Sequence record: MW250785
Strand: one strand, 5' to 3'
DNA from: Escherichia phage UPEC03
Length of the DNA stretch: 64,000 bases
The notes below the pieces were generated by a model. The model was not told where the DNA came from, did no database searches, and saw only the letters and a program-made list of their open reading frames with translations. This document shows positions 7,338-60,158 of this stretch, piece after piece (position 1 is the first letter of the stretch; each line of letters begins with the position of its first letter). A program made the translations under genes and the position numbers.

Positions 7338-7352
7338 TGGTCGCCTTTTTTG
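7326..7352 (+). terminator. rho-independent terminator
   Basis: ggcgacttgatggtcgcc hairpin followed by tttttt. Confidence 0.65.
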
Positions 7353-7354
7353 TT

Positions 7355-7362
7355 TATAAATA
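7355..7362 (+). promoter_or_regulatory. T4-type late promoter TATAAATA
   Basis: Exact TATAAATA 32 nt upstream of the gp34 start codon. Confidence 0.7.
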
Positions 7363-7393
7363 TCAGTATTGAATAAGATAAAGGAAAACGATA

Positions 7394-10300
7394 ATGGTAG
7401 CTAAATCATTCCGCGCCACAAGTGGCCTTGATGCTGCTGGCGAAAAAGTTATCAACGTTGGTAAAGCATCACGCTCTGTGTTGAGCGACGGCGTGAACGT
7501 TGACTTTTTTAACGAATTTAACACGATCCAACAATACGATTCTACCCGTGGTTATGCTGCGTTTATGGCTATCATGTACGCGCGTCGTATTTGGTACGCT
7601 CGCGCAGATATTCCATCACCAGCGGGTGCTTTCGATGAAACAAAATGGATCTCAACCCGTAACGATCCAAAATGGGTATATAACAACGTAACGAGCAATG
7701 ACGGTCTCCCTGTTGAATCCGGTACGTACTTAATGGCTGACGGTCGTTTCTCTGAATTGACCTATATTCTGCCAGATGCCCCTGTTGAGGGTGATATTAT
7801 CACTATTAAAGATGGTGGCGGTCTTGCAGGGATCAACAACCTGTTAGTGCGTTCAAACACTCGTCAGATCCGTTTACGTGATATTCAGTCAAGCTCTTAT
7901 CGACTGACTCACCCATATATGACCGTTGCGTTTATTTTTAACGGCAACTTATGGCGTGTTGCTGAAATGCGTGATAACCGTGATTCGCAGTTTGTTAATG
8001 CGACTGGTTTAACCGCTTTCCAAATGCAAGCGGGTATGGTAACATTCCGTAACAGTGGAACGGGTAAAATTACGTTGCAGTTGCCTCGCTACGCAAACGA
8101 TGGTGACTCAATCACAACTTACGATCTGGATCGCCTTGCTTCGGTGAACGTTGCGACTCTGCAAGTTTATCCTGGTAGCGGACACACGATCAGTTATGAC
8201 GGTATCAATAACGTACCCTCTGTGACTTCACAGCGTTCCGGTTATGGTATTTTCATGTTCGATCAGGCTAATAACCGTTGGGTTGTTTATGACGGTGATC
8301 AGCGCGTTCGTCTGCGTCGTATCAGTGATGACCTGAACATGTTGCCGAACGATTACGTGTTCATTACTCCTGTTGCTGGTAGTCCTCCAACTGTGCGTAA
8401 CGTTACGCTGACTCTTCCGCAAGATGTTGCCGAAGGTGATCGCGTGTATATCAGTATGTACATGATGGGGAAAACGCAGAACTGCACGATCAAAGTTAAA
8501 GATGGTTCCGGTGAAAAGATCCGCACCAACAAAAACATGATGCAGTTCCCACAGCGTAAGGATTATCCGCCTAATGATTGGTTCAGTGTTGACACTCTGA
8601 CTTTCAATGCCGATACTGACTATCTTCCATACATGGAATTGTCGTATCTGAAAGCTACGAAAGAATGGGTAGTTGCACAGTATCGCCCGATCATTGAACG
8701 TGTCGATCCAACAAACCGTTCTCGTCTGGGTGTGATTGCGCTGGCTACACAGGCAGAAGTAAACAAGAACCATGAAGATACGCCGTCTGATGAACTGGCA
8801 GTAACCCCGCGTACACTGGCGAATAAAACCGCTACTGAAACGCGTCGTGGTATCGCTCGCCTGGCAACAACTGCGGAAGTTAACCAGAACACGACAGCAA
8901 CCTTCCTTGATGACGTGATCGTGACGCCTAAAAAGCTGAACGAACGATCAGCAACAGAAGATCGTCGTGGGGTGCTGGAAATCGCAACTCAGGCAGAAAC
9001 AAACGCTGGTACTGATGACACTACCGCAATCACGCCTAAGAAGCTCGACACACGCCGCGCGACCGAAACCCTAGCAGGTATCGGAAAACTCGTTACAACG
9101 GGCGCTACGACAGCGGAGGGGGCTTTACGTGGGGATGCTGGTACTAACGTCTACAACTTCAATAACGGTGTTGATCTGATCACTCCGAAATCATTGAACG
9201 AGAAGACGGCGACCGAAAAGTCAAAAGGTCTGGTTGTTCTGGCGACTGAAAACGAAGTGGTAACTGGTGCTGCTGCGGGATCTGCTTCAATGCCGATCGT
9301 AGTAACTCCTGAAATGCTGCATCGTAAAACGTCTACTGAAACGCGTATCGGATTGATTGAGATCGCAACCCAGACAGAAACAAACACGGGAACTGACGAT
9401 CTCCGTGCTGTAACGCCTAAGAAGCTGAACGATCGTAAAGCGACTGAATCACTTGATGGTATTATTGCCCTCGCTACCACTGCGGAAGTTGCAGCAGGTA
9501 CGGTAACGAATAAGGCGGTTGTTCCGGTTAAGCTGAAAGAGTTCTTCGACGTTACAAGTCATGTTGCGGTTGCTACCGATGACGGTTTAACTCAGTCCGG
9601 CACTATCTGGACAACGATTAACCTGGGGATTGCGTCTGCTACTGAAACACAGCGCGGTACTTTACGTGTTGCGACTCAGGGTGAAACTGATGCGGGTCTT
9701 CTGGATACCGTGTTCATTACGCCTAAGAAACTGCAAGCGAAGAAAGCGACGGATACCGCCGAAGGTATTATTCGTTGTGCGACTAACGCGGAAGCGGGTG
9801 CGGGTACTGCTACTAACCTGGCAATTACTCCGGCTACCATGCAGTTCTTGAACGGTACTGATCCGGCGTGGGGTGCGACGACAACTCGACGCGGTGCGGT
9901 GTTTATCACTACCCAATCAAACACTTTCATCGGTGATAATCTGGTTGGTTCTACTCAGGCCGTTGACGATTATCTCGAAGATTTCTATGCTGTATCGCCT
10001 CGCGGTCTGAACTTTGCTCTGCAAAACTTCTTACCGAAAATGGCAACGGCACAGAATAGTTTGAGTCTGGGCGGTGTGGTTGCTGCAAGCTGGATGCGTC
10101 GTGATGCAAACCAGACGGTAACTGGAAATAACACGTTTAACGGTACAAGCAACTTCGTTGGTAACGTAACCACTAACGGAACACTGACGGCTAACGCTGC
10201 GGTAACGGTTAACAACACCGTAACCACGAACAATAACATTAACCAGTCTGCGAAAGCAAACACTGTTTATGCAAATACTGTTCTGAGTGGTGAGGCTGCG

Positions 10301-11053
10301 GGAACCAAAAACTTGCTTCGTACCTTCCGTGGTGGTGTGGCGGATACGATCTGGCATGAAACTGTTCAGGCAAGCACGTATCGCCTGGCGACGGGTACAA
10401 CGGATCTGGTTGACGTTCTGACAGTAGGTGATGTCGGTAACGGCACAATGGCGTATTCCGGTACGAACATTCGTCTGAATGGTAAAGCTCTGGCTAACAT
10501 CAACACGGCGGGTGATTTGTTTGTTGCAAGTACAGCAACGCCTACGGTACAATTACGAACCGCTGCAACTAATGGTTGGAACGGTGTAACAATCAGTAAT
10601 GACGGCGGCACAACCACTGCAACCGTGATCAACACCCGAAACTTTACCCAGCATCTTGACAGTACCTATGTCAACGTAGCGGGTGATACTATGACTGGTG
10701 CGCTGTCAGTTAGCGTAAACGGTACGGGTGGACGCTTTACCAGTGTGAGCGGTACGGCACATGTTCAGGCGGGTGATTTCTCTGGGAACGTCCAGAAAAT
10801 GCGCTTAACTGGCATTGACGATAAGGTATTGACTGAGTTCAACATCAATATCACCGATTACAACAAAGCGATGATCAACGGAAACCTGATCTATCATGCA
10901 GGTCGTAAACCGACTCCGGCAGAAATCGGGGCGGTGGCGGTAGCGGGTTCAACCGTCGATACTCTGGTTGTACGTAACTATATCAAAATCGGTAACGTGA
11001 AAATCTTCGCAAACCCAGCAACTAAGACTTGTGAATTTGTGTGGGAGGAATAA
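7394..11053 (+). CDS. 34: long tail fibre proximal subunit
   Basis: 1219 aa; extensive collinear match to recalled T4 gp34, including the repeated ATQAE(T/V)N..TDDT.A.TPKKL motifs. Confidence 0.93.
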   Translation: MVAKSFRATSGLDAAGEKVINVGKASRSVLSDGVNVDFFNEFNTIQQYDSTRGYAAFMAIMYARRIWYARADIPSPAGAFDETKWISTRNDPKWVYNNVTSNDGLPVESGTYLMADGRFSELTYILPDAPVEGDIITIKDGGGLAGINNLLVRSNTRQIRLRDIQSSSYRLTHPYMTVAFIFNGNLWRVAEMRDNRDSQFVNATGLTAFQMQAGMVTFRNSGTGKITLQLPRYANDGDSITTYDLDRLASVNVATLQVYPGSGHTISYDGINNVPSVTSQRSGYGIFMFDQANNRWVVYDGDQRVRLRRISDDLNMLPNDYVFITPVAGSPPTVRNVTLTLPQDVAEGDRVYISMYMMGKTQNCTIKVKDGSGEKIRTNKNMMQFPQRKDYPPNDWFSVDTLTFNADTDYLPYMELSYLKATKEWVVAQYRPIIERVDPTNRSRLGVIALATQAEVNKNHEDTPSDELAVTPRTLANKTATETRRGIARLATTAEVNQNTTATFLDDVIVTPKKLNERSATEDRRGVLEIATQAETNAGTDDTTAITPKKLDTRRATETLAGIGKLVTTGATTAEGALRGDAGTNVYNFNNGVDLITPKSLNEKTATEKSKGLVVLATENEVVTGAAAGSASMPIVVTPEMLHRKTSTETRIGLIEIATQTETNTGTDDLRAVTPKKLNDRKATESLDGIIALATTAEVAAGTVTNKAVVPVKLKEFFDVTSHVAVATDDGLTQSGTIWTTINLGIASATETQRGTLRVATQGETDAGLLDTVFITPKKLQAKKATDTAEGIIRCATNAEAGAGTATNLAITPATMQFLNGTDPAWGATTTRRGAVFITTQSNTFIGDNLVGSTQAVDDYLEDFYAVSPRGLNFALQNFLPKMATAQNSLSLGGVVAASWMRRDANQTVTGNNTFNGTSNFVGNVTTNGTLTANAAVTVNNTVTTNNNINQSAKANTVYANTVLSGEAAGTKNLLRTFRGGVADTIWHETVQASTYRLATGTTDLVDVLTVGDVGNGTMAYSGTNIRLNGKALANINTAGDLFVASTATPTVQLRTAATNGWNGVTISNDGGTTTATVINTRNFTQHLDSTYVNVAGDTMTGALSVSVNGTGGRFTSVSGTAHVQAGDFSGNVQKMRLTGIDDKVLTEFNINITDYNKAMINGNLIYHAGRKPTPAEIGAVAVAGSTVDTLVVRNYIKIGNVKIFANPATKTCEFVWEE

Positions 11054-11058
11054 TTTAA

Positions 11059-12654
11059 ATGGCGAATAACGAATTTATGGCGTTATTCGGCCCTGATAGT
11101 TTCACGGCGAGTGTGTTTTCAGAAGCAAACGCCGTGAAATATCGCCTTGTTGTCCGTGGAACGAATAACGATTCTGCGGTCAACTCGGTTGAGGTATCTA
11201 TCAATGGGGCTGATATTATTAACCGAAACGTACAGCGCGGTCGAGGGATTAACCTTGCTGTAATTGACGGTACGAGTTTGGCTTTGCTGGATTTCAAAAC
11301 TTTTGATATGTATGGTGATCCTACTACGAATGGGACTGCGATTAGTGATTACCTATCTACACTTCCAGCAAACAGAATTGTATGTTTCTATACGTTCGAT
11401 GCTATAAAATCTACCGATGCGTTTTTGAGTTATATGCGCACAATCGGATCAGTTGCATGGCCTGAAACACGATTCTTTAACACGCCGTCATCATCAACAA
11501 ACAACCCGCACCGTTCATCCTATTCAGCAATCTATTCATCCACGATGAAAAAGATCTGTATGGAAAACTTCGTAGGTGGTTCTGGTACTGGACTCAAAGA
11601 CAACACGACGAGTTTTGTTGAGGTTGTATTCGATGAATTCAGTGATATCGGGGTAACTGGTATTCCTGAAAGAATGGTTGATGATGTTCAGGTATATCAG
11701 AACAGTGGCAGTGCTTACGGCTTCCATTTATATGGGATGTGGGATATTGGTTCTACTGTTTTCTTGGGGGACATCTTTAAGTTCACTGGTGATGTTTATT
11801 GCTCGCAAGAACTTCGCAATGCTGGCGGCGAATGTTATCTCTATATGTGGACACAGAACGCCTCTGGTCAATGGATATCCTCTGCGGTACTGCGAACAAC
11901 TGGGTTAGCTCCTGATGAATGGCATTCTCTGTCAGGATATTTCACTATCCCTACGGACGCGCTAAACGTGAAGATGGGATGTATGGTATATCACTACCCG
12001 TCTACCGTGAAAGTGGGGCTTGCTCAGTGTCGCAATGTCCAGATCAGTAAAGTTCCACGAATCGAAACCGATCGCAACGGGGCGGCAATTGGTGTAAATG
12101 GTATCAGGATGCAAACGCTTTCCGAAGTTGATGATGCTGGAACCCAAAACCCGATTGATAAATTGCTTTCTCTGCCTGTTTCGCCTACTGGGGTTATTAG
12201 TGACAAGAAAATCAGTTCGCATAACTTTGCTGAACTTGATTATATTGTTTCTGATCCGGTTGAATACACTTCGACAAATACAGCGGAGTACCAGTTCAAA
12301 GAATGGACTGCTACCCAGCAAGCGGCGGTAACGAAAGCATCACTAAGCAGTTACGGATTAAAAGCTGGTGATACGATCCGTATGCAATGCCAAATGAAAC
12401 GCGATGCAAATGCGATTGCTAACAATAAAGGCGCATATATTGTAATGCAGTTCTGGGACGCGAATAATACGTATATTTCAGGGATCAACATGCGTGATGT
12501 TGGTACGATCCCGAACGTATATTCATTCTACAAAAACGAAGGGGTTATTCCTGCTGGTGCGGTTACGTTTGATTTCGGTTTATATCGTTATCCAAACAAC
12601 ACAAACATCGGTACGATATCCGCTAAAGACGTTAATTTGTCAATCGTGAGATAA
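11059..12654 (+). CDS. 35: long tail fibre hinge connector
   Basis: 531 aa; N-terminus MANNEFMALFGPDSF...SEANAVKYRL and NRIVCFYT segment parallel recalled T4 gp35; position directly after gp34. Confidence 0.8.
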   Translation: MANNEFMALFGPDSFTASVFSEANAVKYRLVVRGTNNDSAVNSVEVSINGADIINRNVQRGRGINLAVIDGTSLALLDFKTFDMYGDPTTNGTAISDYLSTLPANRIVCFYTFDAIKSTDAFLSYMRTIGSVAWPETRFFNTPSSSTNNPHRSSYSAIYSSTMKKICMENFVGGSGTGLKDNTTSFVEVVFDEFSDIGVTGIPERMVDDVQVYQNSGSAYGFHLYGMWDIGSTVFLGDIFKFTGDVYCSQELRNAGGECYLYMWTQNASGQWISSAVLRTTGLAPDEWHSLSGYFTIPTDALNVKMGCMVYHYPSTVKVGLAQCRNVQISKVPRIETDRNGAAIGVNGIRMQTLSEVDDAGTQNPIDKLLSLPVSPTGVISDKKISSHNFAELDYIVSDPVEYTSTNTAEYQFKEWTATQQAAVTKASLSSYGLKAGDTIRMQCQMKRDANAIANNKGAYIVMQFWDANNTYISGINMRDVGTIPNVYSFYKNEGVIPAGAVTFDFGLYRYPNNTNIGTISAKDVNLSIVR

Positions 12655-12674
12655 AGGGGCGAAAGCCCCTTTTT
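12652..12674 (+). terminator. rho-independent terminator
   Basis: aaaggggcgaaagcccc hairpin followed by ttttt. Confidence 0.6.
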
Positions 12675-12682
12675 CATAAATA
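12675..12682 (+). promoter_or_regulatory. late promoter-like CATAAATA
   Basis: One mismatch to TATAAATA, 23 nt upstream of the fibre gene ATG. Confidence 0.45.
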
Positions 12683-12705
12683 CAGTCATTACAGGAGAAA
12701 TTTTT

Positions 12706-15028
12706 ATGGCTGATTTGAAATTAGGTACAACGCTGGGTGGTGCGGGTATCTGGAGTGCTTCTAACCTTCCTCTATTGCCCTCTGGTGGACAATTAACGTA
12801 TAAAGGCTGGAGAGTATACACAGAAAATGATCGTCCAACAGCGGAGGATATAGACGCACTATCGACGATTAACGGCGGTACTGTTGCGGTATAAAGGCTG
12901 GAGAGTATACACAGAAAATGATCGTCCAACAGCGGAGGATATAGACGCACTATCGACGATTAACGGCGGTACTGTTGCGAAGAATACTACATTCAATCAG
13001 AATTTGGTTGTGGGTGCTTCATTAACTGCTAACTTGATTCAATCGAATAGTGTTCTTACCATCCAACGTAGCGCAAACCCTGCGGAAATGATTTTCTATC
13101 GTCCCGATATTACGGCAACCCCGTCATCTGAAGCATGGGTTTTAAACATGTATGCGAAAGATGGTTTGAATCGAGGCATGGGTTCGTTGATTATTTCTGC
13201 TCGTACTGACGGTGGAAATAAAGTATATCTGCGGGCGAATAAAGACGGTTCCCCTAATACAAGTTTAACGCTGGATTCGCAAACCCAACAGGTAACAGTT
13301 GAGCAAGGATCTTTTCGCGTAATCGGTACTACGAATCTTGGTGTGACGAACGCCGCATCAATGGCGGTTAGCGGTGCGGTAACTGCGAATACAGTAACCC
13401 CGACAAACTGGGCTAACCATGATGAACGATATATGACGGGCATTCCTCGCGGTATGTCTGGAACAAGTTTCGGTGCTGCTGTTGTAACTGAAAAGAACGA
13501 TGTTCTGTCGGTAGGCGGTAACATCACCGACGGCCCATATGGTAACACTACGTATTACGGGCAGGTTGTCAACTATCGCCGTACATTGAATAGTGGGGTT
13601 TCATTAGTTCAAACATACTTCGGGAACGAAATGTGGTTTCGTCTTGGATCAGGTTCTCCGGGTGCGTGGTCATGGAACCAGGGCGATGCTAATGGTTGGC
13701 GGCGTGTTTATGATACGGTCAGTCCACCAACTCCGGCAGAAGTGGGGGCAGTAAACAAAGCTGGTGATACAATGACTGGTGGTTTAGCGTTACTTGGGGA
13801 TTTGACCTTTCGAAATTTGGTAAATCGTCATATTCGTTTCGAATACACCAAAAACGACGGTTCTACCGCTGTTGACGCTTACATCTATAAAGATGGTGTA
13901 GATAGCTCTACTCGCCGTGCTGGACTTCGCATTAACTGTGCCACACCGAACAAAGCGAGCGGGAATACTTTAAACTCAGGTGATTTTGTATTCGGGGAGA
14001 ATGGTAACTTCACACTGCCTGGCGGTGGTATGATTATTCAGGACGGCCTTAACTCTGGTGTTTATTGTATTTCTGCATTGAGTACATTATCAACAGGAAC
14101 GAAGAATTACCTTCGTCGTTTCCGTGGTGGTTCTGGTGATGTGATTTTTCATGAAACCGTACAAAGTAATACATGGCGTATAGCGTCGGGTGGTTCTGAT
14201 TCACAAGATGAAATGGTTCTTTCTACTGCTGGTTCTGGTTGGGTTCGATATCGTGGAGAGGTTGTTTCGCAATCAGCTAACGGGTTGCGGATTGCGTATA
14301 ACAATAAAGGATTCTTTATCCGAAATGACTCAAACACCACATATTTCTTGTTGACTAATGATAATGATCCCTATGGCTCGTACAACAGTCTTCGCCCTTT
14401 GTATATCAACAATGATACTGGTTCTGTAACGTTAGGTCATGCTGTTGGAATAGGCGGAAACCTCAGCGTCAACGGTACATTTACCACAGCAAACAGCAGT
14501 TTGAGCAATGGTCAATTAGTATTAAACGGTTCAGGCGATTCGCAAGTTTATTTTTCACGAAGTGGTGCTAACCCTCGCGATATGAGAATTTTCCATTCTG
14601 GTGATGCTTCTCGCGGGAACCGTGTTGAAATTGCTGATTCTACATCATATCTGGTTTATTTTGAGCGTCATCCGTCAAGTGGCATTCAGTTGTCCATGAA
14701 CGGTAACGGTATCTTTAACGATGTGTATATTCGTTCTGATGAAAGACTGAAAAGTAATTTCAGTAAGATTGAAAATGCATTGGATAAAGTTGATTTGCTT
14801 GATGGTATGGTGTACGACAAAGCAAACCATATCGGGGGTGAAGAAACTACCCGCGAGGCTGGTTTAGTCGCACAACAACTGCAAGAAGTATTACCGGAAG
14901 CCGTTAAGAAAGGTGTTGATGGTGAACAGAACGAGATCTTAACTGTTTCGTCTTCTGCTGTTATTGCGTTGCTGGTTAACGCGATTAAAGAACTCCGTGA
15001 GGAAGTCAGGGAACTTAAATCCCGCTAA
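12706..15028 (+). pseudogene. distal long-tail-fibre subunit (gp36/gp37-like) with C-terminal intramolecular chaperone domain, frame-disrupted by a 91-bp tandem duplication
   Basis: N-terminal 62-aa fragment MADLKLGTTLGGAGIW... (12706-12894) ends in a stop; the rest continues in the +1 frame from 12884 (714 aa). Removing one 91-bp repeat copy restores a single ORF of about 744 aa. C-terminus carries the S-D-x-R-L-K autoprocessing motif (IRSDERLKSNF). Confidence 0.8.
12798..12979 (+). repeat. perfect tandem direct repeat, 2 x 91 bp
   Basis: Bases 12798-12888 are identical to 12889-12979 (gtataaaggctggagagtatacacag...ggcggtactgttgcg). Confidence 0.9.
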
Positions 15029-15030
15029 TT

Positions 15031-15050
15031 AAAAGCCCTTCGGGGCTTTT
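15031..15050 (+). terminator. rho-independent terminator
   Basis: aaaagcccttcggggctttt hairpin with T-run. Confidence 0.7.
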
Positions 15051-15056
15051 TCTTTT

Positions 15057-15064
15057 TATAAATA
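15057..15064 (+). promoter_or_regulatory. T4-type late promoter TATAAATA
   Basis: Exact TATAAATA 26 nt upstream of the second fibre gene. Confidence 0.7.
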
Positions 15065-15090
15065 TCATAAAAGCATTTGAGGATCTAATA

Positions 15091-17304
15091 ATGGCAGATT
15101 TAAAAGCGGGTACTACCGTTGGCGGTAATACTATCTGGAGTCAGGCAAATTTACCTGTTCTTCCTTCTGGAAATACTTTAACATACAAAGGCTTTAAGGT
15201 ATATACCGAAAACGACAAACCAACAAAAGCCGAAATCGGGTTAGGCAACGTAACGAACGACGCACAGGTGAAGAAAGCTGGCGATGATATGACCGGATCT
15301 CTGAACATCACAGGGGCGAATAGTCAATTAACTGTTCCTTATCGCCTGTTGATGCAACGTGCGGTTGCTGGAGATCCATACGTCCTGTTTGTTCGTCCAG
15401 ACAACAACCCAATTACTAACGGATATCCTTCTACAACGCTTCGTGTAATGACTATCACTGCCCGTGCTGCGACAACTACTGATCCGGTTTCTGGCGCTCA
15501 ACTGGCAAACATTTTGTCAGATCAGACAGCACAGGGTAACGGGTCATTAACTCTGCAAGCGTTTGCAGCCCCGAACACATCTACGGGCGCAAGCGGTGCG
15601 CGTACAGCGGAAGTCTATTTGAACGGTAACGGACAGTTATCAATGATAGGTTCCGGTTTAACGATCGGGATGCAGACTGTTGTAAACGGTACGATTTTCG
15701 GTACACAAATGGCTATTAAAGGCGATTCGAACCGAAACCTGTTCTTCCAGGATGCTGGCGATAATGAATTGAGTTTGATTTATGCGGATACCGGAAAGAA
15801 CTTATATGTTCGTACTGGTGGCGGCGCATATGCTACTCGTTTCGCTTCTGATGGAACTTTAGTATTAGCAAATCATCTAACCGTTCCTGGTATTGCTACT
15901 TTTAACGGTCAAGCAGTGATGAATAGCCGTTTGTCTGTGTCTACTGATTTTGACTCTCAGGGAGTCAATAGTGCGGTTATTCGTGTTGACACAAGCGGCG
16001 ACGGAAACGCGGTTGGTGATGGTGTAACCCATTTAGGATATAAAGACGGCAACGGAAGATTCAACCATTATTTCCGTGGTACTGGATCGTTATTTGTTAA
16101 CACCAAACTTGGTATGAACATCAACGTACCATCTTATTATAACGATGTACCACAAACCACTCCAGCACAATATTTCTTGTCTACGGGTACGCAAGGCGCG
16201 AAAAATTATTTGCGTCAGTTCCGAGGCGGCAACGCGGATACGATCTGGCATGAAACTGTTCAGGGTGGCTTATATCGTTTAGCGTCTGGTAGCACTGATG
16301 CGCAAGAAGAATTCATGGTTTCTACTGCTGGCTATATCAGATCTCGCGTAGAAGTACAAAGTGCTTCGTGTGGTTCTGGCGGTCAGTTCCGCGCGGTTCA
16401 GGGTAACTTCGGCGTGATGCACCGAAATGATGGTGGTAACTATTACTTCCTGATTACTAACTCTGGCGATCCGTGGGGAACGTGGAACGGATTACGCCCA
16501 TTCACCATTGGTTTGACCACGGGTATTGTATCGATGTCCAGCGGTGTTAATATCTCCGGTGGTTTCAACATCAACGGTGCTGCTGAATTTAACAACGGTC
16601 TGGGTTGTGGTACTGCAAACGGATTGGGCGCAAACGCAATATCTCTGGGTGATACCGATACAGGTTTTGTTCAAGAAGGTGATGGTATTCTCAACGCCTA
16701 CGCGAACAGCCAACGAATTCAACGTTGGACAACAGGGGCTAGTGCAGTTTATAAGCAATTGCAGGTTCAAGGCGTTAACGGGCCAGCATTACTTCTGAAC
16801 AACACCGCAAGCAACCAGTCTGTATACATGCTTTTGCAATATGCAGGTACAAACGCTGGTTATCTGGGCTTTGGTGGTTCTGATAACACCATGACAATGC
16901 ACAACTACCAGTTGAATACAAACTTACAGTTGCGCGTAAGTGACATATATGTAAACCGTGCATTGTATGGTGAAAGCACAGGCAACTTTACTGATGTGTA
17001 TATTCGTTCAGATCGCCGTCTAAAATCGAACCTGGTTGAGATTAAAGATGCTCTGGTTAAAGTAGAACAGCTTACAGGCTATGTATACGATAAACAATCA
17101 AAAGATGCGGACGAAATTGTATACCATCGCGAATCTGGTCTGATTGCACAAGATGTTCAGGAAGTATTACCTGATGCAGTAAAAGAAGATAGTAACTCCG
17201 GTATGCTTACGATTTCACCTGCGGGTGTTAACGCGCTTCTGGTGAATGCAATCAACGAACTGCGCGAACGTCTGGAAGCAATTGAAAACAAATTAGGGGC
17301 TTAA
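15091..17304 (+). CDS. 37: distal long-tail-fibre subunit (gp37-like) with C-terminal intramolecular chaperone domain
   Basis: 737 aa; N-terminus MADLKAGTTVGGNTIW...LTYKGFKVYTENDKP resembles T4 gp36/gp37 N-termini; internal NYLRQFRGG...WHETVQ and FLITNSGDP...GLRP motifs shared with gp34/gp37; C-terminal IRSDRRLKSNL autoprocessing motif. Confidence 0.85.
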   Translation: MADLKAGTTVGGNTIWSQANLPVLPSGNTLTYKGFKVYTENDKPTKAEIGLGNVTNDAQVKKAGDDMTGSLNITGANSQLTVPYRLLMQRAVAGDPYVLFVRPDNNPITNGYPSTTLRVMTITARAATTTDPVSGAQLANILSDQTAQGNGSLTLQAFAAPNTSTGASGARTAEVYLNGNGQLSMIGSGLTIGMQTVVNGTIFGTQMAIKGDSNRNLFFQDAGDNELSLIYADTGKNLYVRTGGGAYATRFASDGTLVLANHLTVPGIATFNGQAVMNSRLSVSTDFDSQGVNSAVIRVDTSGDGNAVGDGVTHLGYKDGNGRFNHYFRGTGSLFVNTKLGMNINVPSYYNDVPQTTPAQYFLSTGTQGAKNYLRQFRGGNADTIWHETVQGGLYRLASGSTDAQEEFMVSTAGYIRSRVEVQSASCGSGGQFRAVQGNFGVMHRNDGGNYYFLITNSGDPWGTWNGLRPFTIGLTTGIVSMSSGVNISGGFNINGAAEFNNGLGCGTANGLGANAISLGDTDTGFVQEGDGILNAYANSQRIQRWTTGASAVYKQLQVQGVNGPALLLNNTASNQSVYMLLQYAGTNAGYLGFGGSDNTMTMHNYQLNTNLQLRVSDIYVNRALYGESTGNFTDVYIRSDRRLKSNLVEIKDALVKVEQLTGYVYDKQSKDADEIVYHRESGLIAQDVQEVLPDAVKEDSNSGMLTISPAGVNALLVNAINELRERLEAIENKLGA

Positions 17305-17329
17305 TGCCCCTCTTTAAGAGGAATATTTT

Positions 17330-18142
17330 ATGGCTGTTGTAGGCGTACCTGGTTGGATCGGGTCTTCTGCTGTAAGCGAAACGGGTCAAAGATGGATGTC
17401 CGCTGCTGCGGGACAACTTCGATTATCTGCTGCGGGTTATATGTCACGATTTGCGGGGATCTCCCGTGAACAATCAATAACAATTTCCGCGAGTAACGCA
17501 TACGCATGGTCAACCCTGGTCAACCAGATTAAATCATTGGGTGTATCCGGTGGTGCATTCAAAATTACTGTTGTCGGGAACATCGTTTCAAACAGTGCTG
17601 GCGCTCCGTGCCTTAACTTCACATCCGATCTTGCTGGTGTCGATTATATCGAACTGATCATTAACTCCGGTGTAGGTGTTATGGGTCGTGGTGGTGCGGG
17701 TGGTGGTGATAACACAGGTGGCCCGTATTCGTCCGGTGAAAATGGTGGTGTCGGTATTACTAACGCGATCGGAAACAAACTGCGAATAACGAACAATGGT
17801 TATATTGCGGGTGGTGGTGGTGGTGGTGGCCTGGTAAACATGCCAACTTCTACATCACGACGTGTACAGGTATCCGGTGGTGGTGGTCGACCTTTCGGTG
17901 CTGCTGGTACAGGTGGTTATGACGGTAACGGTACAGCGGCAACAATTTCCGCTCCTGGTTCCGGTGGTTCTTCGAGTCTATCACAAGCTGGTGCGGGTGG
18001 TAACTTAGGTGCGGCTGGTCAATATCCACCTAAAGCCGATGGTCGTCTGGAAGCTCAAGCGGCGGGTGCTGCGGGTGCTGCGGTTAACGGTAACGCGCCA
18101 ACGTGGAGAACTGTAGGGACAATTTACGGTTCGAGAGTTTAA
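17330..18142 (+). CDS. 38: T2-type tail fibre adhesin with glycine-rich motifs
   Basis: 270 aa; N-terminus MAVVGVPGWIGSSAV.ETGQRWMS.AAGQLRL matches recalled T2-family gp38; poly-Gly runs (GGGGGGG, GGGGRPFGAAGTGG); C-terminus PTW..VG.IYG.RV. Confidence 0.85.
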   Translation: MAVVGVPGWIGSSAVSETGQRWMSAAAGQLRLSAAGYMSRFAGISREQSITISASNAYAWSTLVNQIKSLGVSGGAFKITVVGNIVSNSAGAPCLNFTSDLAGVDYIELIINSGVGVMGRGGAGGGDNTGGPYSSGENGGVGITNAIGNKLRITNNGYIAGGGGGGGLVNMPTSTSRRVQVSGGGGRPFGAAGTGGYDGNGTAATISAPGSGGSSSLSQAGAGGNLGAAGQYPPKADGRLEAQAAGAAGAAVNGNAPTWRTVGTIYGSRV

Positions 18143-18195
18143 GTAAATTCCTAAATATAATCGGGGGTCGGCATCCCCGAACTTGAGGATTAAAC

Positions 18196-18840
18196 ATGGC
18201 GCTATTACAAGATAAATTGGCGGTGCTTGAACGGGTAATATCGTTCATCATGGCGGTCAAAACATGGAAACAGTTATTCATTAAATTGGTTCTTATCGTC
18301 ACTATTTTCATTATGTTCGTAACATGGTACAAGTGGGATGACTTATTTTCAGTCTGGAAAACATCTTCAATCGTTATAGACGTGCCGACGATGGAGATTG
18401 AAAAGGCAAAAAAGTTTGAATCCGCATCCATCGAACAGTTAAACATAGTGCATTTAACTACGGATGCGGATTTTTCGGCAATCTTTGGTTTCAGACCTAA
18501 GAATGTCAATTATTTTGTTGATATAATTGCGTATGAAGGGAAGTTACCGCAACAGATTAACCCGAAAAATCTGGGTGGCTATCCTATAGACAAGACATCG
18601 GAAGAGTATAATAGACATATAAACGGGCTGTACTATATCTCAGATATTGCAAGCCCGTATCTTCCAACAAAAGACCTTGTTCCGGTAGCATATACCTTTA
18701 GTTGTCCTTATTTCAATCTCGAAAACTACTATTCTGGATCGATTCTAATGGAATGGTATATACAGAAGCCCGAAGTCACCGATACGAAGTTGATGATCGT
18801 GTGCAATCAGGCCGCTAGAATTTTAGGCAGGGTTCGATGA
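18196..18840 (+). CDS. t: holin
   Basis: 214 aa; strong collinear match to recalled T4 holin T (FVDIIAYEGKLP, FSCPYFNLEN, ICNQAARILGR). Confidence 0.9.
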   Translation: MALLQDKLAVLERVISFIMAVKTWKQLFIKLVLIVTIFIMFVTWYKWDDLFSVWKTSSIVIDVPTMEIEKAKKFESASIEQLNIVHLTTDADFSAIFGFRPKNVNYFVDIIAYEGKLPQQINPKNLGGYPIDKTSEEYNRHINGLYYISDIASPYLPTKDLVPVAYTFSCPYFNLENYYSGSILMEWYIQKPEVTDTKLMIVCNQAARILGRVR

Positions 18841-19098
18841 TAATTTCAGTTTCAAACCGCTTAAAGCCCGATCGATGAAATCTTTTACTTTCGTCATCGG
18901 GCTTTTGTCGTATATGTCCCATACGCGCATGAGTTCGTAAGGTGTCGGAACATATTCATCGTTCCAGTATCCAACATTACCTATCGTAACGCGTCGGAAA
19001 CCAGCCTCTACGCTGTGATATACAAAGAACCCAGCCTTACCCACAGGGGAGACTTTAAAACCGCGTGTAGCGGCTTTCATGGCTTCGTCGTGTGTCAT
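18823..19098 (-). CDS. DUF2829-like small protein (possible Tad2-like)
   Basis: 91 aa; N-terminal MTHDEAMKAATRGFKV and C-terminal W/aromatic pattern (YELMRVWDIYD) resemble the DUF2829 signature as I recall it. Confidence 0.45.
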   Translation of the reverse strand: MTHDEAMKAATRGFKVSPVGKAGFFVYHSVEAGFRRVTIGNVGYWNDEYVPTPYELMRVWDIYDKSPMTKVKDFIDRALSGLKLKLSSNPA

Positions 19099-19397
19099 GA
19101 TAGAATCACTTCGCCTCTGTATTGATTGTGATAGATGTATGGACGAACACCCAGTGGGTGATTATCTATGACTAAGATCAGGTCAAGTTCGTCGTGGTTA
19201 TCATCTTCTGCAACTATATCCCAGTCGGTCGCTTTCTGTTCTTCAACACTGGCAATGAATACCTGGTTAATCTCAACCTTACGGTGAGAACGGCGAATGA
19301 TCGTATCCCCTTCGCGGAACACGATCATATCTGGGTTAATCGGGCGGTACGCGGTTTTACCCGCGCACACTTCATTAAGCATTTCTTCGTATGTCAT
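19095..19397 (-). CDS. DUF2829-like small protein (possible Tad2-like)
   Basis: 100 aa; N-terminal MTYEEMLNEVCAGKTAYRP and TDWDIVAED match the recalled DUF2829 pattern (MxFxEALxALKxGKKVxRP ... DWEIV). Confidence 0.5.
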   Translation of the reverse strand: MTYEEMLNEVCAGKTAYRPINPDMIVFREGDTIIRRSHRKVEINQVFIASVEEQKATDWDIVAEDDNHDELDLILVIDNHPLGVRPYIYHNQYRGEVILS

Positions 19398-20194
19398 TAT
19401 AATACCTTTACTCGCTGAACGATTGTTTGTTTAACTTCTTTGTATTCGTTGTGAAGTTTAGGTGTCGCTTTGAAGCGAATCACATCACCCTCTTCAACAA
19501 TTTTGTTTCCGTAGTAGATAACCACGTTACCATCTACGTTGATTTTGGTCATGAAACGTTCCACTTCGGTGTAATAAGAAACTTGGGTATATCCGAGAGA
19601 AATCACTTTCTCAACAACCCCGCTCATTTCCATACGCTTACCGATTTCCCCGATGTGCTGTGCTGCTGCGATCTTCGCCTGGCGCTCTGCTTCCCATTCT
19701 GCGCGGATCTCTTCACGTTTAGCGATGTAATCCTTCTCCAGCGCTACGCCCATGCAGTAAGAGCAAATAGCCTGAAATACTGGGCTATCGTTGCCGTTTT
19801 CTTTGCACTGATCAGCCCACCACAGAATCGTATACATCGGCATATCAGCAATCACTTCACCTTTACGCTTACCGATTGGCATGATGCCCTGTTCCAGCAG
19901 TTCCAGGTTTTCGGTATCCTGTACAGACAGTTTGCCGCGACGTTCAAACAGATCGAAATCTGCGAATCCCTGGAACACCATCTGGAAAGTGTCGGTCTGG
20001 TTCAGACGATCCACCATGCGATCGAAGTATTCACGCGCTTTCGCTTCTGCTTTATCTGGGTCGGTAGACAGGTTGCAGATATAGTTATCAGAAGTGAATC
20101 CACCTCCACGACGCTCTACACGCAGGGTGTACATAGCGTTTTTAGCGCCAGAAGAAATGAAGTATGTCGCGGTAACTTTAGTCAGGTTAGTCAT
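19397..20194 (-). CDS. hypothetical protein (265 aa)
   Basis: Start set at MTNLTKV preceded by AAGGAGA RBS; followed by terminator at about 20237-20268. Confidence 0.6.
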   Translation of the reverse strand: MTNLTKVTATYFISSGAKNAMYTLRVERRGGGFTSDNYICNLSTDPDKAEAKAREYFDRMVDRLNQTDTFQMVFQGFADFDLFERRGKLSVQDTENLELLEQGIMPIGKRKGEVIADMPMYTILWWADQCKENGNDSPVFQAICSYCMGVALEKDYIAKREEIRAEWEAERQAKIAAAQHIGEIGKRMEMSGVVEKVISLGYTQVSYYTEVERFMTKINVDGNVVIYYGNKIVEEGDVIRFKATPKLHNEYKEVKQTIVQRVKVL

Positions 20195-20236
20195 GGTGAA
20201 TCTCCTTAGTGGTTTCGTTTCGACAAGGCCAATATA

Positions 20237-20268
20237 GCAAAAGCCCTCAACCGAAGTCAAGGGCTTTT
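20237..20268 (-). terminator. rho-independent terminator
   Basis: aaagccctcaaccgaagtcaagggcttttt hairpin. Confidence 0.55.
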
Positions 20269-20270
20269 TA

Positions 20271-20498
20271 TCATGCGTTCGAATCTTTCATAACTTTATG
20301 AAGATGGATATCAAAAATTTTCCAGTATGCTTTTCCGCGAGGATAAATTTTTGCTTTATCAATGTCTTCGTTGCTTCCCCATGTATTGTTTGGGTTACGA
20401 CAACGATTTTTTGCATAATCCATGTGCCAGAATAAGCGCTGCACCGATGAATCTGTGCCTAATGGATCTTCTTTGCTGAACAGAATTTGTGAACTCAT
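20271..20498 (-). CDS. hypothetical protein (75 aa)
   Basis: ORF in minus-strand early block. Confidence 0.45.
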   Translation of the reverse strand: MSSQILFSKEDPLGTDSSVQRLFWHMDYAKNRCRNPNNTWGSNEDIDKAKIYPRGKAYWKIFDIHLHKVMKDSNA

Positions 20499-20824
20499 AA
20501 GAAGAAACCTGTTCGAACTACTAAATCGATCTGTTTTTCCGGTATCAGTGGCGCTTTATCGTCAACGTTGCACTGATAATACATCCCGACATACTCATGA
20601 GGAACGTTGGATTCGCTCGCCCATTTCAGGTTGTCATCTGTACGCGGCCCTAACATGAGGTTAACGATATTGACAGCGTGATCCTGTTCTGGGGTATTGT
20701 TGCATCCGTTCACATAATGTCCGTGAGCGGTTTTGAGGATTTCAATGATATCTTCGTCGGCTTCAACGAGATACAGCCCCGTGTTTTCTGGGATTTCCTC
20801 AAGAATAATCAAAGCGGTTTTCAT
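20495..20824 (-). CDS. hypothetical protein (109 aa)
   Basis: Start set at MKTALIIL with RBS aaaggtaag. Confidence 0.45.
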   Translation of the reverse strand: MKTALIILEEIPENTGLYLVEADEDIIEILKTAHGHYVNGCNNTPEQDHAVNIVNLMLGPRTDDNLKWASESNVPHEYVGMYYQCNVDDKAPLIPEKQIDLVVRTGFFL

Positions 20825-20929
20825 CACACTTACCTTTATGTTTCTGCTTACGTTTTGCTTCTTTAAGTGCTCGCTTGCGATCGCGGTGAGTAGAAGCGCG
20901 GTTGAAATCATGTTTCGCTACCAGGTTGT

Positions 20930-21160
20930 TCATCGAGGATATAATGGCACATGATGTTGAATACTGACTTCGCCATACAGTTTTACGATAGTTAAGCTAT
21001 CAGATCCTTTAACAATTCTGTATTTTTCTGGAACAACGCGGTCGATTTCTTTTTTGACAAAGTTAAGCAATCCGAAGTCATCTATATCTTTTGGTGCTTT
21101 GGAAATAGAAGACAACGATACTCGTTGACGTGAATCATAGTACGAAGAAATTACAAACAT
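20930..21160 (-). CDS. hypothetical protein (76 aa)
   Basis: ORF in minus-strand early block. Confidence 0.4.
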   Translation of the reverse strand: MFVISSYYDSRQRVSLSSISKAPKDIDDFGLLNFVKKEIDRVVPEKYRIVKGSDSLTIVKLYGEVSIQHHVPLYPR

Positions 21161-21204
21161 ATATTATTTTCCTTATTGGGGCTTTTCAGCCCCATTTTAG
21201 ATAA

Positions 21205-21459
21205 TTAATCCAGCAGTTTGCGGATTTTATCCGCGATACGTCCGGCGCGTGTTGCGCTTGCGGTATGATCGCTTTCTTTGGTAGCCAGTTCAGCCAGCTT
21301 ACGCTGATGTTCTTCTTCCGCTGCTTTGCGGTCTGCTGCTACCTGTGCGACCTGTTCGTTATCGTGAGCAATACGCGCTTCGAGTTCGGTCAGGGTTTTG
21401 TCAAAAGTTGCTACGATTTCGTCTACAGAACGGATTTTGGAAAACAGTTTCATATTCAT
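21205..21459 (-). CDS. hypothetical coiled-coil protein (84 aa)
   Basis: Charged heptad-like sequence. Confidence 0.45.
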   Translation of the reverse strand: MNMKLFSKIRSVDEIVATFDKTLTELEARIAHDNEQVAQVAADRKAAEEEHQRKLAELATKESDHTASATRAGRIADKIRKLLD

Positions 21460-21467
21460 TATCTCAA

Positions 21468-21905
21468 TTAGTATGGTTGGAATTCAAAGTCAAACAGATC
21501 ATTTAGTGCGCGGTTGTATTCAGTATAGTTCTCACCATCCCCGAACCGCATCTGAATCGCGCTTTCCGCTATTGTACCAGTAAGATTCGAGAAACCAAAG
21601 AGGTTTTTAATCTTATCGTGTGCAACGAAGTACAGAGAAGCACTATCCAGCAAGGCCACCATCGCTGATGGTTCATGTTCGCGGCGTTTGATGCGTAACA
21701 GAGTACGGTTTGCGCCAGTCTTACGGCGTTGATTTGGGGCTACGTAGAATCGAAATACTACTTTACCCGTTTTATCATCAACTACCAGGTAGAAGCCGTG
21801 TTCTTTCAGGTCAACCCCTTCGAACTTGGTGAAGTCACCGCGCTTCATGTCACCTATCTTAACAGCGTATTTGTGGATGTCAAGCCTTGTCAGAATTCTT
21901 TTCAT
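21468..21905 (-). CDS. ndd: nucleoid disruption protein
   Basis: 145 aa; GFYLVVDDKTGKVVFRFYVAPNQRRK...DLFDFEFQPY parallels recalled T4 Ndd (GFYFLVSEFDG...RFYVGNQRSK...FKFVLQAY). Confidence 0.75.
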   Translation of the reverse strand: MKRILTRLDIHKYAVKIGDMKRGDFTKFEGVDLKEHGFYLVVDDKTGKVVFRFYVAPNQRRKTGANRTLLRIKRREHEPSAMVALLDSASLYFVAHDKIKNLFGFSNLTGTIAESAIQMRFGDGENYTEYNRALNDLFDFEFQPY

Positions 21906-22293
21906 TTTTCTTTACCAGTTTATTTCCGAATTTTGTGTTTACACCAGTTTTCATATTCATAGTCAGTGCCAGTAAGAAGATAGGGCATGACAAAATCAAG
22001 ATCGTTGATCCGAACAGCAAACGAACTAAGCGAATCAATAACGTCCCGATCCATTTCATCGGTATCTCTACCCACTTCTGAACCGTTGCGAGTACCAGCA
22101 TAACATAACCCAGATTAAATGCAAGGGCTGTTGCGATAATACCGTAAGGTTTTTTGAAGTATGTCTGTTCGCCGTCTTCTGTACGTCCAGCGGTAACGTT
22201 GCCTCCGTTCCAGAGTTCTTTGGCGGTTTTAATGGCTGTTTCTGCCCCGCTCAAGTTCTGCCAGTAGTCAGGAATGCTCTGTAGGAATTTCAT
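21880..22293 (-). CDS. hypothetical membrane protein (137 aa)
   Basis: Two long hydrophobic segments. Confidence 0.5.
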   Translation of the reverse strand: MKFLQSIPDYWQNLSGAETAIKTAKELWNGGNVTAGRTEDGEQTYFKKPYGIIATALAFNLGYVMLVLATVQKWVEIPMKWIGTLLIRLVRLLFGSTILILSCPIFLLALTMNMKTGVNTKFGNKLVKKNEKNSDKA

Positions 22294-22338
22294 AATCGAA
22301 TCCTCCGCGCCTGAATCGCTCCAGGCGCTGTTTTGGGG

Positions 22339-23247
22339 TTAGTAGTGACTGAATCCCACAGTTACATCACGCATCACCTGATAACGGCATACACGCATCT
22401 TAGCGTTGTCGTAATCTGTCGGGATTGCTACAACATCGCGAGGATTAACCTTGACCTGAATAACTTTCCCGCGTCCTCCGCCATAGTGAGGCAGATACGA
22501 TTTTGCGGCAACATGCAAACCGCATGAACAGGTTCGGTTTTTATTCTCGTCTACCTGGTTACGTGGCATTTCAACCACAACACCAGGGGAGTTATCGAAC
22601 TTACCGGAAGCCAGATCGCGGAAGTCTTCGCGAACACGTTTCCATGCGTAGAAATCTCCGTCATCTGCCAGTTCGATATCGTTATGCACCATGAACCCAT
22701 AAAGCTGATACACAGCATCGCGTGAAGGGTTTTCCATCAACTTCTCAAAGAAGTTAACCAGGTGCTCGTAAGGGCGATCGTTGTACATTTCGCGAACGAT
22801 ACGTTGCGTGATACCGCTGTCAAACACAATATCTTTGTACAGGACTTTATGCCCGATGATTTTAATGTTGCCTTTGCTGTAAATCTTCAACGCTTGCGTT
22901 GTGTCCAACAGGGTAGCAACTCCCTCAATGTCACCCTTAACCATTAAAGCATGTGCTTTTTCGAAGTTAGGGTGTGACGAATCCGCTGTGATGATCTTGC
23001 CGTCCAGTACCAGAGTAATGAACGATTCAGAACCAATCATTTTAGATTTGACATCTGTTTGTGGAAGTGGTTTCGTCGCTTCCACATTATACTTAGCGTG
23101 TTGCTCGGTAATAACGCGCCCGATGGTTCGGACGCTTACACCAAATTGTTTAGCCAGTGCGGTTTTGTTTGCGCTGGTCAGAAAGCCCTCATAAACTGCT
23201 TTCTTTTGTACATCATCAAGGATCTTAACGTTTCTCATTATTTCCAC
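22339..23247 (-). CDS. rIIB: rIIB protein
   Basis: 302 aa; C-terminal region (FYAWKRVR, TCSCGLHVAAKSY, VKVNPRDVVAIPTDYDNAKMRVCRYQV) matches recalled T4 rIIB. Confidence 0.85.
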   Translation of the reverse strand: MEIMRNVKILDDVQKKAVYEGFLTSANKTALAKQFGVSVRTIGRVITEQHAKYNVEATKPLPQTDVKSKMIGSESFITLVLDGKIITADSSHPNFEKAHALMVKGDIEGVATLLDTTQALKIYSKGNIKIIGHKVLYKDIVFDSGITQRIVREMYNDRPYEHLVNFFEKLMENPSRDAVYQLYGFMVHNDIELADDGDFYAWKRVREDFRDLASGKFDNSPGVVVEMPRNQVDENKNRTCSCGLHVAAKSYLPHYGGGRGKVIQVKVNPRDVVAIPTDYDNAKMRVCRYQVMRDVTVGFSHY

Positions 23248-52107: not shown

Positions 52108-52773
52108 TTATTTCTCGTTTAAGTTAATTAAAGTTTGTTTCATTAAGTTTCGGTATTTTACGATTTCTTCGTTACTGATTTCAACTAATTTTCTGTATGC
52201 GTTTAGTTTTTTACTAAATTCATTCCAGACGAAATCCGTTGCGATTTCATCGTGTTTATTTATGATGTCTAAAAACGAGTCGAGGATCAAGAATGATTCA
52301 TAAGAAATCACCCCAGACTGTACGAGTTTGCTGATATACGAGGTTGATGATTTGACGCTATACTGAAACACCGTTGAGAGGGGAATACCTTTCATGCGGG
52401 AAAATTCATACAGGTTTTTTACATCGTCCACGAAAATATTATCAATTCGCCTCAACTTGCCTATGTATTGACGATAAAACACGATCGTATCTTCGTCTAC
52501 ATCCCCGACCCAGAAGTCGGGGTTAGCTACCATGTTGGAGAGAAGTATAAGATATATTTCTTTAAATGTAAACCTTTCGGCTAACTTTTTGAAAAAATAC
52601 TTATCTCTTCTCTTTTCGAACGCTTTTTCAGTGATCTTTATTTCCCATTTGTACTTGATCGCGTCATACTTCCCAGCAAAGTGATTTTTCATCACCAGAT
52701 ACAGTTTGTATACCGCGATCGGTTTCAAACGGGAATTAGCGTCTGAACTGTCAAACGGGGTTTTAAATTTCAC
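52108..52773 (-). CDS. 59: helicase loader
   Basis: 221 aa; VYKLYLVMKNHFAGKYDAIKYKW, KRRDKYFF, LILDSFLDIINKHDE parallel recalled T4 gp59. Confidence 0.88.
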   Translation of the reverse strand: MKFKTPFDSSDANSRLKPIAVYKLYLVMKNHFAGKYDAIKYKWEIKITEKAFEKRRDKYFFKKLAERFTFKEIYLILLSNMVANPDFWVGDVDEDTIVFYRQYIGKLRRIDNIFVDDVKNLYEFSRMKGIPLSTVFQYSVKSSTSYISKLVQSGVISYESFLILDSFLDIINKHDEIATDFVWNEFSKKLNAYRKLVEISNEEIVKYRNLMKQTLINLNEK

Positions 52774-60087: not shown

Positions 60088-60158
60088 CAGCAAAACATAA
60101 ATACCTTAAAGTTGCCCGTGTACTGAGTTACATGGGCTTTTATTTTGAGGAACGGAAA

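Follow-up and report, generated by a model that had tools for sequence, protein, structure and literature searches.

What is the use of two consecutive fibre genes of nearly equal length, both opening like gene 36, in the tail fibre module of a T4-type phage? The question is raised by positions 12706-18142 of a 64,000-nucleotide (nt) stretch of Escherichia phage UPEC03 (sequence record MW250785), the whole of which is called the window below. The two fibre genes, named A and B here, are followed by the gene of a gp38 adhesin. The module is the standard distal long-tail-fibre set of RB43-like (Pseudotevenvirus) phages, and its layout, already known from a GenBank record since 2003 (AY266307), is ordinary for the genus. 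An earlier reading made from the letters alone (the original prediction) had called the module atypical, which it is only in comparison with T4 and T2. Comparison with relatives favours A and B as independent complete half-fibres over a gp36 connector with a gp37 rod behind it, and we consider it fairly probable that they are parallel distal half-fibres, both of which would dock on the knee protein gp35. The features of the two fibres and of gp38 are listed below; ORF stands for open reading frame and aa for amino acids.

12706-15028, + strand: fibre gene A, whole span, present as two ORFs in the window
13787-14716, + strand: hypervariable distal cassette of A, residues 331-640 (orthologue comparison)
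14192-14407, + strand: Gp34_trimer domain within the cassette of A, residues 466-537 (Pfam)
14735-15025, + strand: Peptidase_S74 intramolecular chaperone domain of A, predicted dyad Ser647/Lys652 (Pfam, alignment, model)
15091-17304, + strand: fibre gene B, 737 aa (ORF and domain matches)
B residues 1-48: gp36-type head (BLASTP)
16315-16509, + strand: Gp34_trimer domain of B, residues 409-473 (Pfam)
16786-16989, + strand: candidate gp37_trimer domain of B, residues 566-633 (Pfam)
17008-17301, + strand: S74 chaperone domain of B, residues 640-737, predicted dyad Ser640/Lys645 (Pfam)
17330-18142, + strand: gp38 adhesin, glycine-rich T2/S16 type, 270 aa (Pfam GP38, Gp38_N, phrog_2056)

Heads, bodies and tips of the two fibres

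Both proteins begin with a gp36-type head, as originally predicted. It reads MADLKLGTTLGGAGIWSASNLPLLPSGGQLTYKGWRVYTENDRPT in A and MADLKAGTTVGGNTIWSQANLPVLPSGNTLTYKGFKVYTENDKPT in B, and the motif MADLK.G.T.GG..IW....P..P.G....YK...Y is present in both. In BLASTP comparisons T4 gp36 matched residues 1-72 of A with 47 % identity (E 3e-18) and residues 1-48 of B with 52 % identity (E 5e-14), and the two heads are 72 % identical to each other over 46 residues. The gp36 family profile phrog_1425 covered residues 1-218 of A (E 3e-22) and only residues 1-49 of B (E 6e-16). PF03903, which describes the body of T4 gp36 and scores 178 bits with that protein, found no match in A or B up to E 10. Neither protein has the size of gp36, about 220 aa: B has 737 residues and A, in its restored form (see below), has 743.

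At the other end, A and B share the sequence VYIRSD(E/R)RLKSN, after which comes a Peptidase_S74 domain. PF13884 scored 52.3 bits in A (residues 647-704) and 53.7 bits in B (residues 640-698) at a cut-off of 22; in S-D-x-x-x-K, the positions of Ser, Asp and Lys did not vary among 53 related fibres that were aligned. The predicted IRSD.RLKSN end with its chaperone domain was thus found in both proteins. A structure model of the chaperone fold was made for the C-terminal 204 residues of A only (540-743); in it the chaperone part reached a predicted local distance difference test score (pLDDT) of 88-96, and residues 719-742 formed a long C-terminal helix, a segment that had also been foreseen. 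Foldseek matched this model to 7dc3 (MyRF ICA, target TM-score 0.6) and 3gw6 (endosialidase chaperone) with a probability of 1.0. The Gp34_trimer shaft and the chaperone domains of A and B are paralogous like their heads. Between residue ~105 and residues 360-430 the two bodies are unrelated, which makes A/B heterotrimers implausible.

The distal part of A is its most variable part. Among 60 orthologues the median pairwise identity was 71 % in the N-terminal module and 81 % in the chaperone domain, but 38 % in the cassette; the cassette has sharp, mosaic edges, and in the window it shares 51 % identity with a fibre region of phage P1. On this pattern the segment behaves like a receptor-binding cassette, and we favour the view that such cassettes are drawn from a general pool of receptor-binding modules. 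The database name for A, "small distal tail fiber subunit", is misleading. The idea that the tip of A mimics the C-terminus of gp34 was rejected: the likeness is limited to the Gp34_trimer shaft domain that both possess, and nothing in A corresponds to the C-terminal 165-196 residues of gp34.

B ends differently, with a candidate gp37_trimer domain (PF20744, the gp38-docking domain) directly before the chaperone; it scored 22.4 bits at residues 566-633 against a cut-off of 21.7, and A gave no match. Upstream of the predicted cleavage site A bears only a weak similarity to S16 gp37 (6F45), and with the gp37_trimer domain unmatched there the proposal that gp38 caps A as well as B was rejected. 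The gp37-type N-terminus (MA[TD][LI]KQIQFKRS; MATLKQIQFKRS...) is likewise not found in B, which opens with the gp36-type head instead; it was seen only where a relative has a small gp36, as in Kosakonia phage 305 and in P0065-P0076. A duplicated gp36/gp37 pair, one of two explanations offered by the original prediction, does not fit a module that has neither a small gp36 nor that N-terminus in B.

The gene of gp38 starts 25 nt past the stop codon of B and lies between B and t. Its product matched Pfam GP38 (PF05268, E 9e-49), Gp38_N (PF21721, E 9e-18) and phrog_2056 (E 1e-72), is 93 % identical to gp38 of EcL22g and shows glycine runs in its translation, so that the expected glycine-rich T2-type gp38 does follow the fibres. 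By its domains and its position it is an adhesin of the T2/T6/S16 type and a predicted receptor binder.

An exact 31-nt repeat is common to g34 (10340-10370) and B (16234-16264), where it codes for ...DTIWHETVQ... in the Gp34_trimer domain; it is likely a recombination linker. An exact look-up of B returned nothing, B being split over two Logan contigs at this repeat.

Parallel half-fibres and the alternatives

A and B are regarded as complete units because each has a head, a body, an S74 domain and a late-promoter motif of its own, and because hairpins follow g35 and A. The parallel arrangement is favoured by the existence of one-fibre relatives, the likeness of the B head to their heads, the missing gp37-type N-terminus of B, the hypervariable tip of A and the shared pool of cassettes; of the explanations in the original prediction, two alternative distal fibres docking on gp35, it is thus the one towards which the comparative evidence points.

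Natural relatives with a single fibre are of several kinds. In one lineage, whose identity to the window is 77-87 %, the sole fibre is A-like: in L013/L014, g34 and g35 (521 aa) are followed by one A-like fibre of 855 aa and then by the holin, with neither B nor gp38. In the metagenomic contigs L008-L010 and in the cultured Klebsiella phage Fraggle_ER53 a single fibre consists of the A head (~41 residues) and a B-type body, and is accompanied by gp38. Judged by its sequence, this hybrid arose when the two heads recombined. Yersinia phage JC221, Pectobacterium phage POP12 and Aeromonas phage 50AhydR13PP carry one gp36-headed fibre directly after g35. The identity of the B and A heads to the single-fibre heads was 78 % vs 74 % for L013, 70 % vs 63 % for JC221 and 63 % vs 59 % for POP12; since the B head is as close as that of A, or closer, to heads that must dock on gp35, it looks like a gp35-docking head too.

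The crossover of the fusions in Fraggle_ER53 (L020 2802-5569) and in L008 (8001-10937) lies in identical VYTEND codons. The two differ in the B body and in the type of gp38 (172 aa vs 270 aa), which suggests that the deletion between the heads is recurrent.

In the verified two-fibre genomes the B heads are 89-100 % identical, whereas the last 60 residues of mature A share 28-45 % identity between cassette types; EkoM5VN and leB, for instance, have B heads that are 100 % identical and A tips that are 35 % identical. With B heads near invariant and A tips so divergent, one B head could hardly bind all the A tips.

Two further observations were made among the relatives. The cassette and chaperone of the A-like fibre of L013 (10024-11529) share 93 % nucleotide identity with tail-fibre genes of the 115-kb Escherichia phages vB_Eco_mar003J3 and vB_EcoS-26175, which points to a recent exchange of this cassette between unrelated phage groups. 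In L019 (10416-15299), which belongs to an unrelated T4-like lineage of 167 kb, tandem gp36-headed and S74-tailed fibres of 673 and 681 aa follow a short gp35 of 379 aa and precede a protein with a Gp38_N domain; the two-fibre design would thus have arisen, or have been kept, more than once.

The transcription signals and the genes that flank the fibres are the following.

7356-7362, + strand: ATAAATA upstream of g34 (motif list)
7394-11053, + strand: g34, proximal half-fibre, 1219 aa (ORF; 91 % identity to RB43 gp34 and 45 % to T4 gp34)
11059-12654, + strand: g35, knee or hinge protein, long form, 531 aa (phrog_1154 'proximal connector', E 3e-177)
12654-12682, + strand: GC-rich hairpin with a T-run after g35, then the late-promoter-like CATAAATA (read from the sequence)
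12675-12682, + strand: late-promoter-like CATAAATA, ending 23 nt before the ATG of A
15031-15050, + strand: terminator-like hairpin after A (15031-15064 for the whole element with the promoter motif)
15057-15064, + strand: late-promoter-like TATAAATA, ending 26 nt before the ATG of B
18196-18840, + strand: holin t, downstream boundary of the module (Pfam Phage_holin_T, E 3e-55)

The motif ATAAATA is under-represented in the 64-kb window, with only five occurrences against 11.7 expected, and three of the five precede g34, A and B, at a distance of 27-38 nt from the start of the gene. The late promoter predicted for each fibre gene is borne out by ATAAATA-type motifs at 12675-12682 for A and 15057-15064 for B. 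The other two occurrences are at 52257-52263 (- strand) and 60097-60103 (+ strand). No late-promoter motif was found in the 25-nt gap between the stop codon of B and gp38, and for this reason B and gp38 probably form one transcript.

If A and B are parallel half-fibres, each would be transcribed late from its own promoter and would fold as a trimer with the aid of its own C-terminal S74 chaperone domain, which would then cleave itself off before Ser647 in A or Ser640 in B. Each gp36-type head would dock on the knee protein gp35. A would display its own exchangeable receptor-binding tip (cassette 331-646), and the co-transcribed gp38 would cap the matured tip of B in the manner of T2 and S16. 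The virion would thus bear distal half-fibres of two kinds, with one receptor specificity each. We infer from sequence comparison the docking of both heads on gp35, the cleavage, the presence of both proteins in virions and the binding of a receptor by the tip of A.

Several points weigh against this arrangement. In the literature searched for the genus, no virion proteomics, microscopy or genetics of either protein was found. The T4 fibre contains one gp35 monomer and one gp36 trimer, and by analogy, if this stoichiometry holds here, each knee would take either A or B only. The deletion hybrids retain the A head, and they indicate that the body of A is dispensable, not that the B head binds gp35. 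The gp36 profile spans far more of A than of B, as described above. Finally, mature A and B (646 and 639 aa) add up to 1285 aa, close to the 1247 aa of T4 gp36 plus gp37, a length that would also suit a serial fibre.

In such a serial fibre A would be an enlarged gp36 on gp35, and the B head would bind the tip of A after release of the chaperone, giving a chain of gp35, A, B and gp38 with a T4-like length. The gene order, which resembles g36 then g37, and the database names of the genes agree with this arrangement, as do the profile coverage and the summed length just mentioned. It is opposed by the missing gp37-type N-terminus of B, which gp37 does have in the relatives with a small gp36, by the near invariance of the B heads in the face of divergent A tips, and by the relatives, a cultured isolate among them, that have the A-like fibre only or the B body only. 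Moreover, we know of no case in which a shaft docks on a chaperone-released tip; the small gp38 adhesin is the sole partner of such a tip known to us. We therefore regard a serial fibre as unlikely.

It is more doubtful still that only one of the fibres is built in at a time, or at all, with the other kept as a recombination reservoir or for particular hosts. This was among the options raised by Trojet et al. 2011 (PMC3157838), who argued that the size of the virion fibre suggests a single gp37 trimer and that perhaps only one version is expressed. The apparently recurrent head-to-head deletions (L008, Fraggle_ER53) imply that the body of A can be lost, and the two heads act as recombination linkers. 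On the other hand, both genes have kept an unbroken ORF, a late-promoter motif, a ribosome-binding site and unvarying catalytic residues in dozens of genomes. In A the N-terminal module is conserved and the cassette is exchanged, as in a receptor-binding protein in active use, and the unrelated L019 retains the two-fibre design.

We give an equally low chance to a branched long tail fibre with A and B on the same knee, in which two receptors would be engaged per fibre; if true, it would be the first described in a T4-type phage. The knee protein of the window is unusual in size: T4 gp35 (372 aa) aligns to its residues 4-356, and with 531 aa it is 160 residues longer. Besides an ILEI/FAM3-like domain its model contains two beta-sandwiches whose strands follow one and the same order at an offset of 200 residues, i.e. 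the C-terminal beta-sandwich is internally duplicated, and the best Foldseek match of the model was a tandem CBM22-CBM22. On this model gp35 may be a lectin-like knee, and its lectin-like domains (ILEI-like plus two CBM-like beta-sandwiches) might make a third contact, with surface glycans. The duplicated domain was also considered as a pair of docking sites, i.e. a branched knee, and rejected, as the form of the domain does not track the number of fibres: a long gp35 accompanies a single fibre in JC221, POP12, L013, L008 and Fraggle_ER53, and the short gp35 of 379 aa accompanies two fibres in L019.

The 91-nt duplication in gene A

In the window gene A is interrupted by an exact 91-nt tandem duplication (12798-12888 = 12889-12979, 100 % identical), which the original prediction had missed. 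The parts of the interrupted gene are as follows.

12706-12894, + strand: 5' fragment of A, 62-aa ORF with the gp36-type head, then a premature stop
12798-12888: first copy of the duplication; absent as a second unit in relatives and in the Logan assembly
12888/12889: duplication junction, ...ACTGTTGCG|GTATAAAGG... (GTTGCG|GTATAAAGG)
12889-12979: second copy; deleting either copy restores the 743-aa frame
12884-15028, + strand: main part of A, 714-aa ORF in the shifted frame, corresponding to restored residues 31-743

The duplication shifts the frame and leads to a stop at 12892-12894, and the 743-aa protein emerges only after one copy is deleted. Of the two consecutive genes of about 744 and 737 aa that had been predicted, B is therefore present as described, but A is represented by ORFs of 62 and 714 aa and attains 743 aa only when restored. 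The restored protein is 100 % identical to P0001, and the EkoM5VN gene is 98 % identical to gene A at the nucleotide level.

The duplication most probably arose as an artefact when the source sequence was assembled, for example from the overlap of a contig that was circularised without trimming. In SRR16019039, from the same phage, Logan contigs are 100 % identical to window positions 10341-16263 and 16235-24142 except for a single 91-nt copy, and gene A is intact there with 743 aa. The only other exact repeat of at least 31 nt within positions 7000-19000 is the 31-mer of g34 and B. The Logan assembly (k=31) breaks exactly at that 31-mer, yet it reads through the 91-nt unit unbroken. A true tandem duplication in the SRR16019039 reads would give junction k-mers and a break, which is why an artefact is favoured.

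The alternative is that the duplication is real in the sequenced stock, which would then be a natural fibre-A knockout infecting by means of B and gp38; the tandem repeat could revert and so act as an on/off switch. The duplication is, after all, present in the window as given, single-fibre relatives are viable, and tandem duplications are readily formed and resolved by T4-type phages. A real duplication in another stock is possible and counts against the artefact. We nevertheless hold a real duplication to be improbable, given the independent assembly of a 100 % identical phage that has one copy with its graph unbroken at this point. The three directly aligned relatives have a single copy of the unit, the two closest (full-length) matches to gene A measure 2232 nt, no relative among the 71 records matching gene A is known to carry the duplication, and an exact search of viral contigs for the junction found no match. 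There is also no microhomology where the repeat begins and ends, and its length is like that of a k-mer; these two traits are typical of contigs that were circularised with their overlap left in place. As it stands, the duplication makes an intact structural gene look like a pseudogene in the record.

A comparable defect exists in the RefSeq record of RB43, NC_007023 (L007 11231-11320), where gene 36 has a frameshift by a 1-nt deletion at about codon 22 and is annotated from a downstream TTG. It was rejected as proof that A is dispensable: RB43-GVA (HE858210) and AY266307 carry the gene intact, so that the frameshift is specific to that record.

The module among known tail fibre systems

The window belongs to the RB43 group of T4-type phages (genus Pseudotevenvirus); in nucleotide searches it was 85-98 % identical to phages of about 178 kb infecting Enterobacter, Klebsiella, Cronobacter and Citrobacter. 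Gene-by-gene orthology confirmed the RB43-type order g34 / long g35 / 36-37.1 / 36-37.2 / 38 / t. Of the checks proposed with the original prediction, the profile searches matched all the families named (Peptidase_S74/intramolecular chaperone, gp36 N-terminal and gp38), and comparative genomics found the layout shared across the genus, with natural one-fibre relatives. A search for related loci with the A protein alone confirmed no relative, and protein homologues and the contigs encoding them were used instead; NCBIfam gave zero matches for any of the four proteins. On the whole, the original observation was partly confirmed and its interpretation is partly supported.

In AY266307 the RB43 genes are annotated "gp 36-37.1", "gp 36-37.2" and "gp 38"; the amino-terminus of gp 36-37.1 is noted there as resembling T2 gp36, and gp 36-37.2 is described as built alike. 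Trojet et al. 2011 (PMC3157838) discussed the two-fibre layout of RB43 and called its function unclear. The question of which fibre is used thus dates from 2011, and the natural one-fibre relatives render it directly testable. This module determines the host range of RB43-like phages, which are now being gathered for therapeutic use against Enterobacter, Klebsiella, Cronobacter and Citrobacter. If the parallel arrangement is true, host-range engineering and resistance studies must include the A cassette as well as gp38.

RB43 itself is the closest of the known systems. Like the window, it has a g34 of 1219 aa, a long g35, two gp36-headed fibres of ~740-810 aa, gp38 and t; A of the window is 56-58 % identical to 36-37.1 and B 54-56 % to 36-37.2. 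It differs in its gp38, which is of a 174-aa type sharing only the N-terminal 45 residues with the 270-aa glycine-rich gp38 of the window, in the distal cassette of A, which is of another type, and in the 91-nt duplication, which is in gene A of the window.

B resembles the gp37 of T2, T6 and S16 (S16 structure 6F45): it has a candidate gp37_trimer domain directly before S74, and a gp38 gene with Gp38_N and GP38 follows. In S16 gp37 the same motif, in the form SDRRIK, stands immediately behind the gp38-docking domain. B differs in being short (737 aa) and in having a gp36-type head in place of the gp37-type N-terminus, with the small gp36 gene absent. In T2 and T6 the C-terminus of gp37 is cleaved and gp38 then caps it (Trojet et al. 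2011, PMC3157838). As T2 and T6 fibres are cleaved and capped and S16 has the same motif, the pairing of a gp37 that carries its own chaperone with a separate adhesin is a common T-even design, and the combination described in the original prediction is the ordinary one of T2, T6 and S16.

With T4 the likeness is confined to parts. The first 48-72 residues of T4 gp36 (221 aa) match both heads, and the Gp34_trimer shaft domain is present in T4 gp34 too, with a weak match in T4 gp37; the PF03903 body of gp36, in contrast, is unmatched in A and B. T4 gp37 (1026 aa) has no S74 domain, needs the chaperones gp38 and gp57A and bears its own tip.

The chaperone ends of A and B, finally, are of the kind found in the K1F endosialidase (3GW6), the T5 L-shaped fibre and the MyRF ICA (7DC3), with which they share the Pfam family, the Ser-Lys dyad and the predicted C-terminal fold. 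A further resembles these fibres in that its chaperone domain comes immediately after an exchangeable tip. Unlike in those systems, here a gp36 head joins the fibre to a T4-type knee, and two such units stand side by side.

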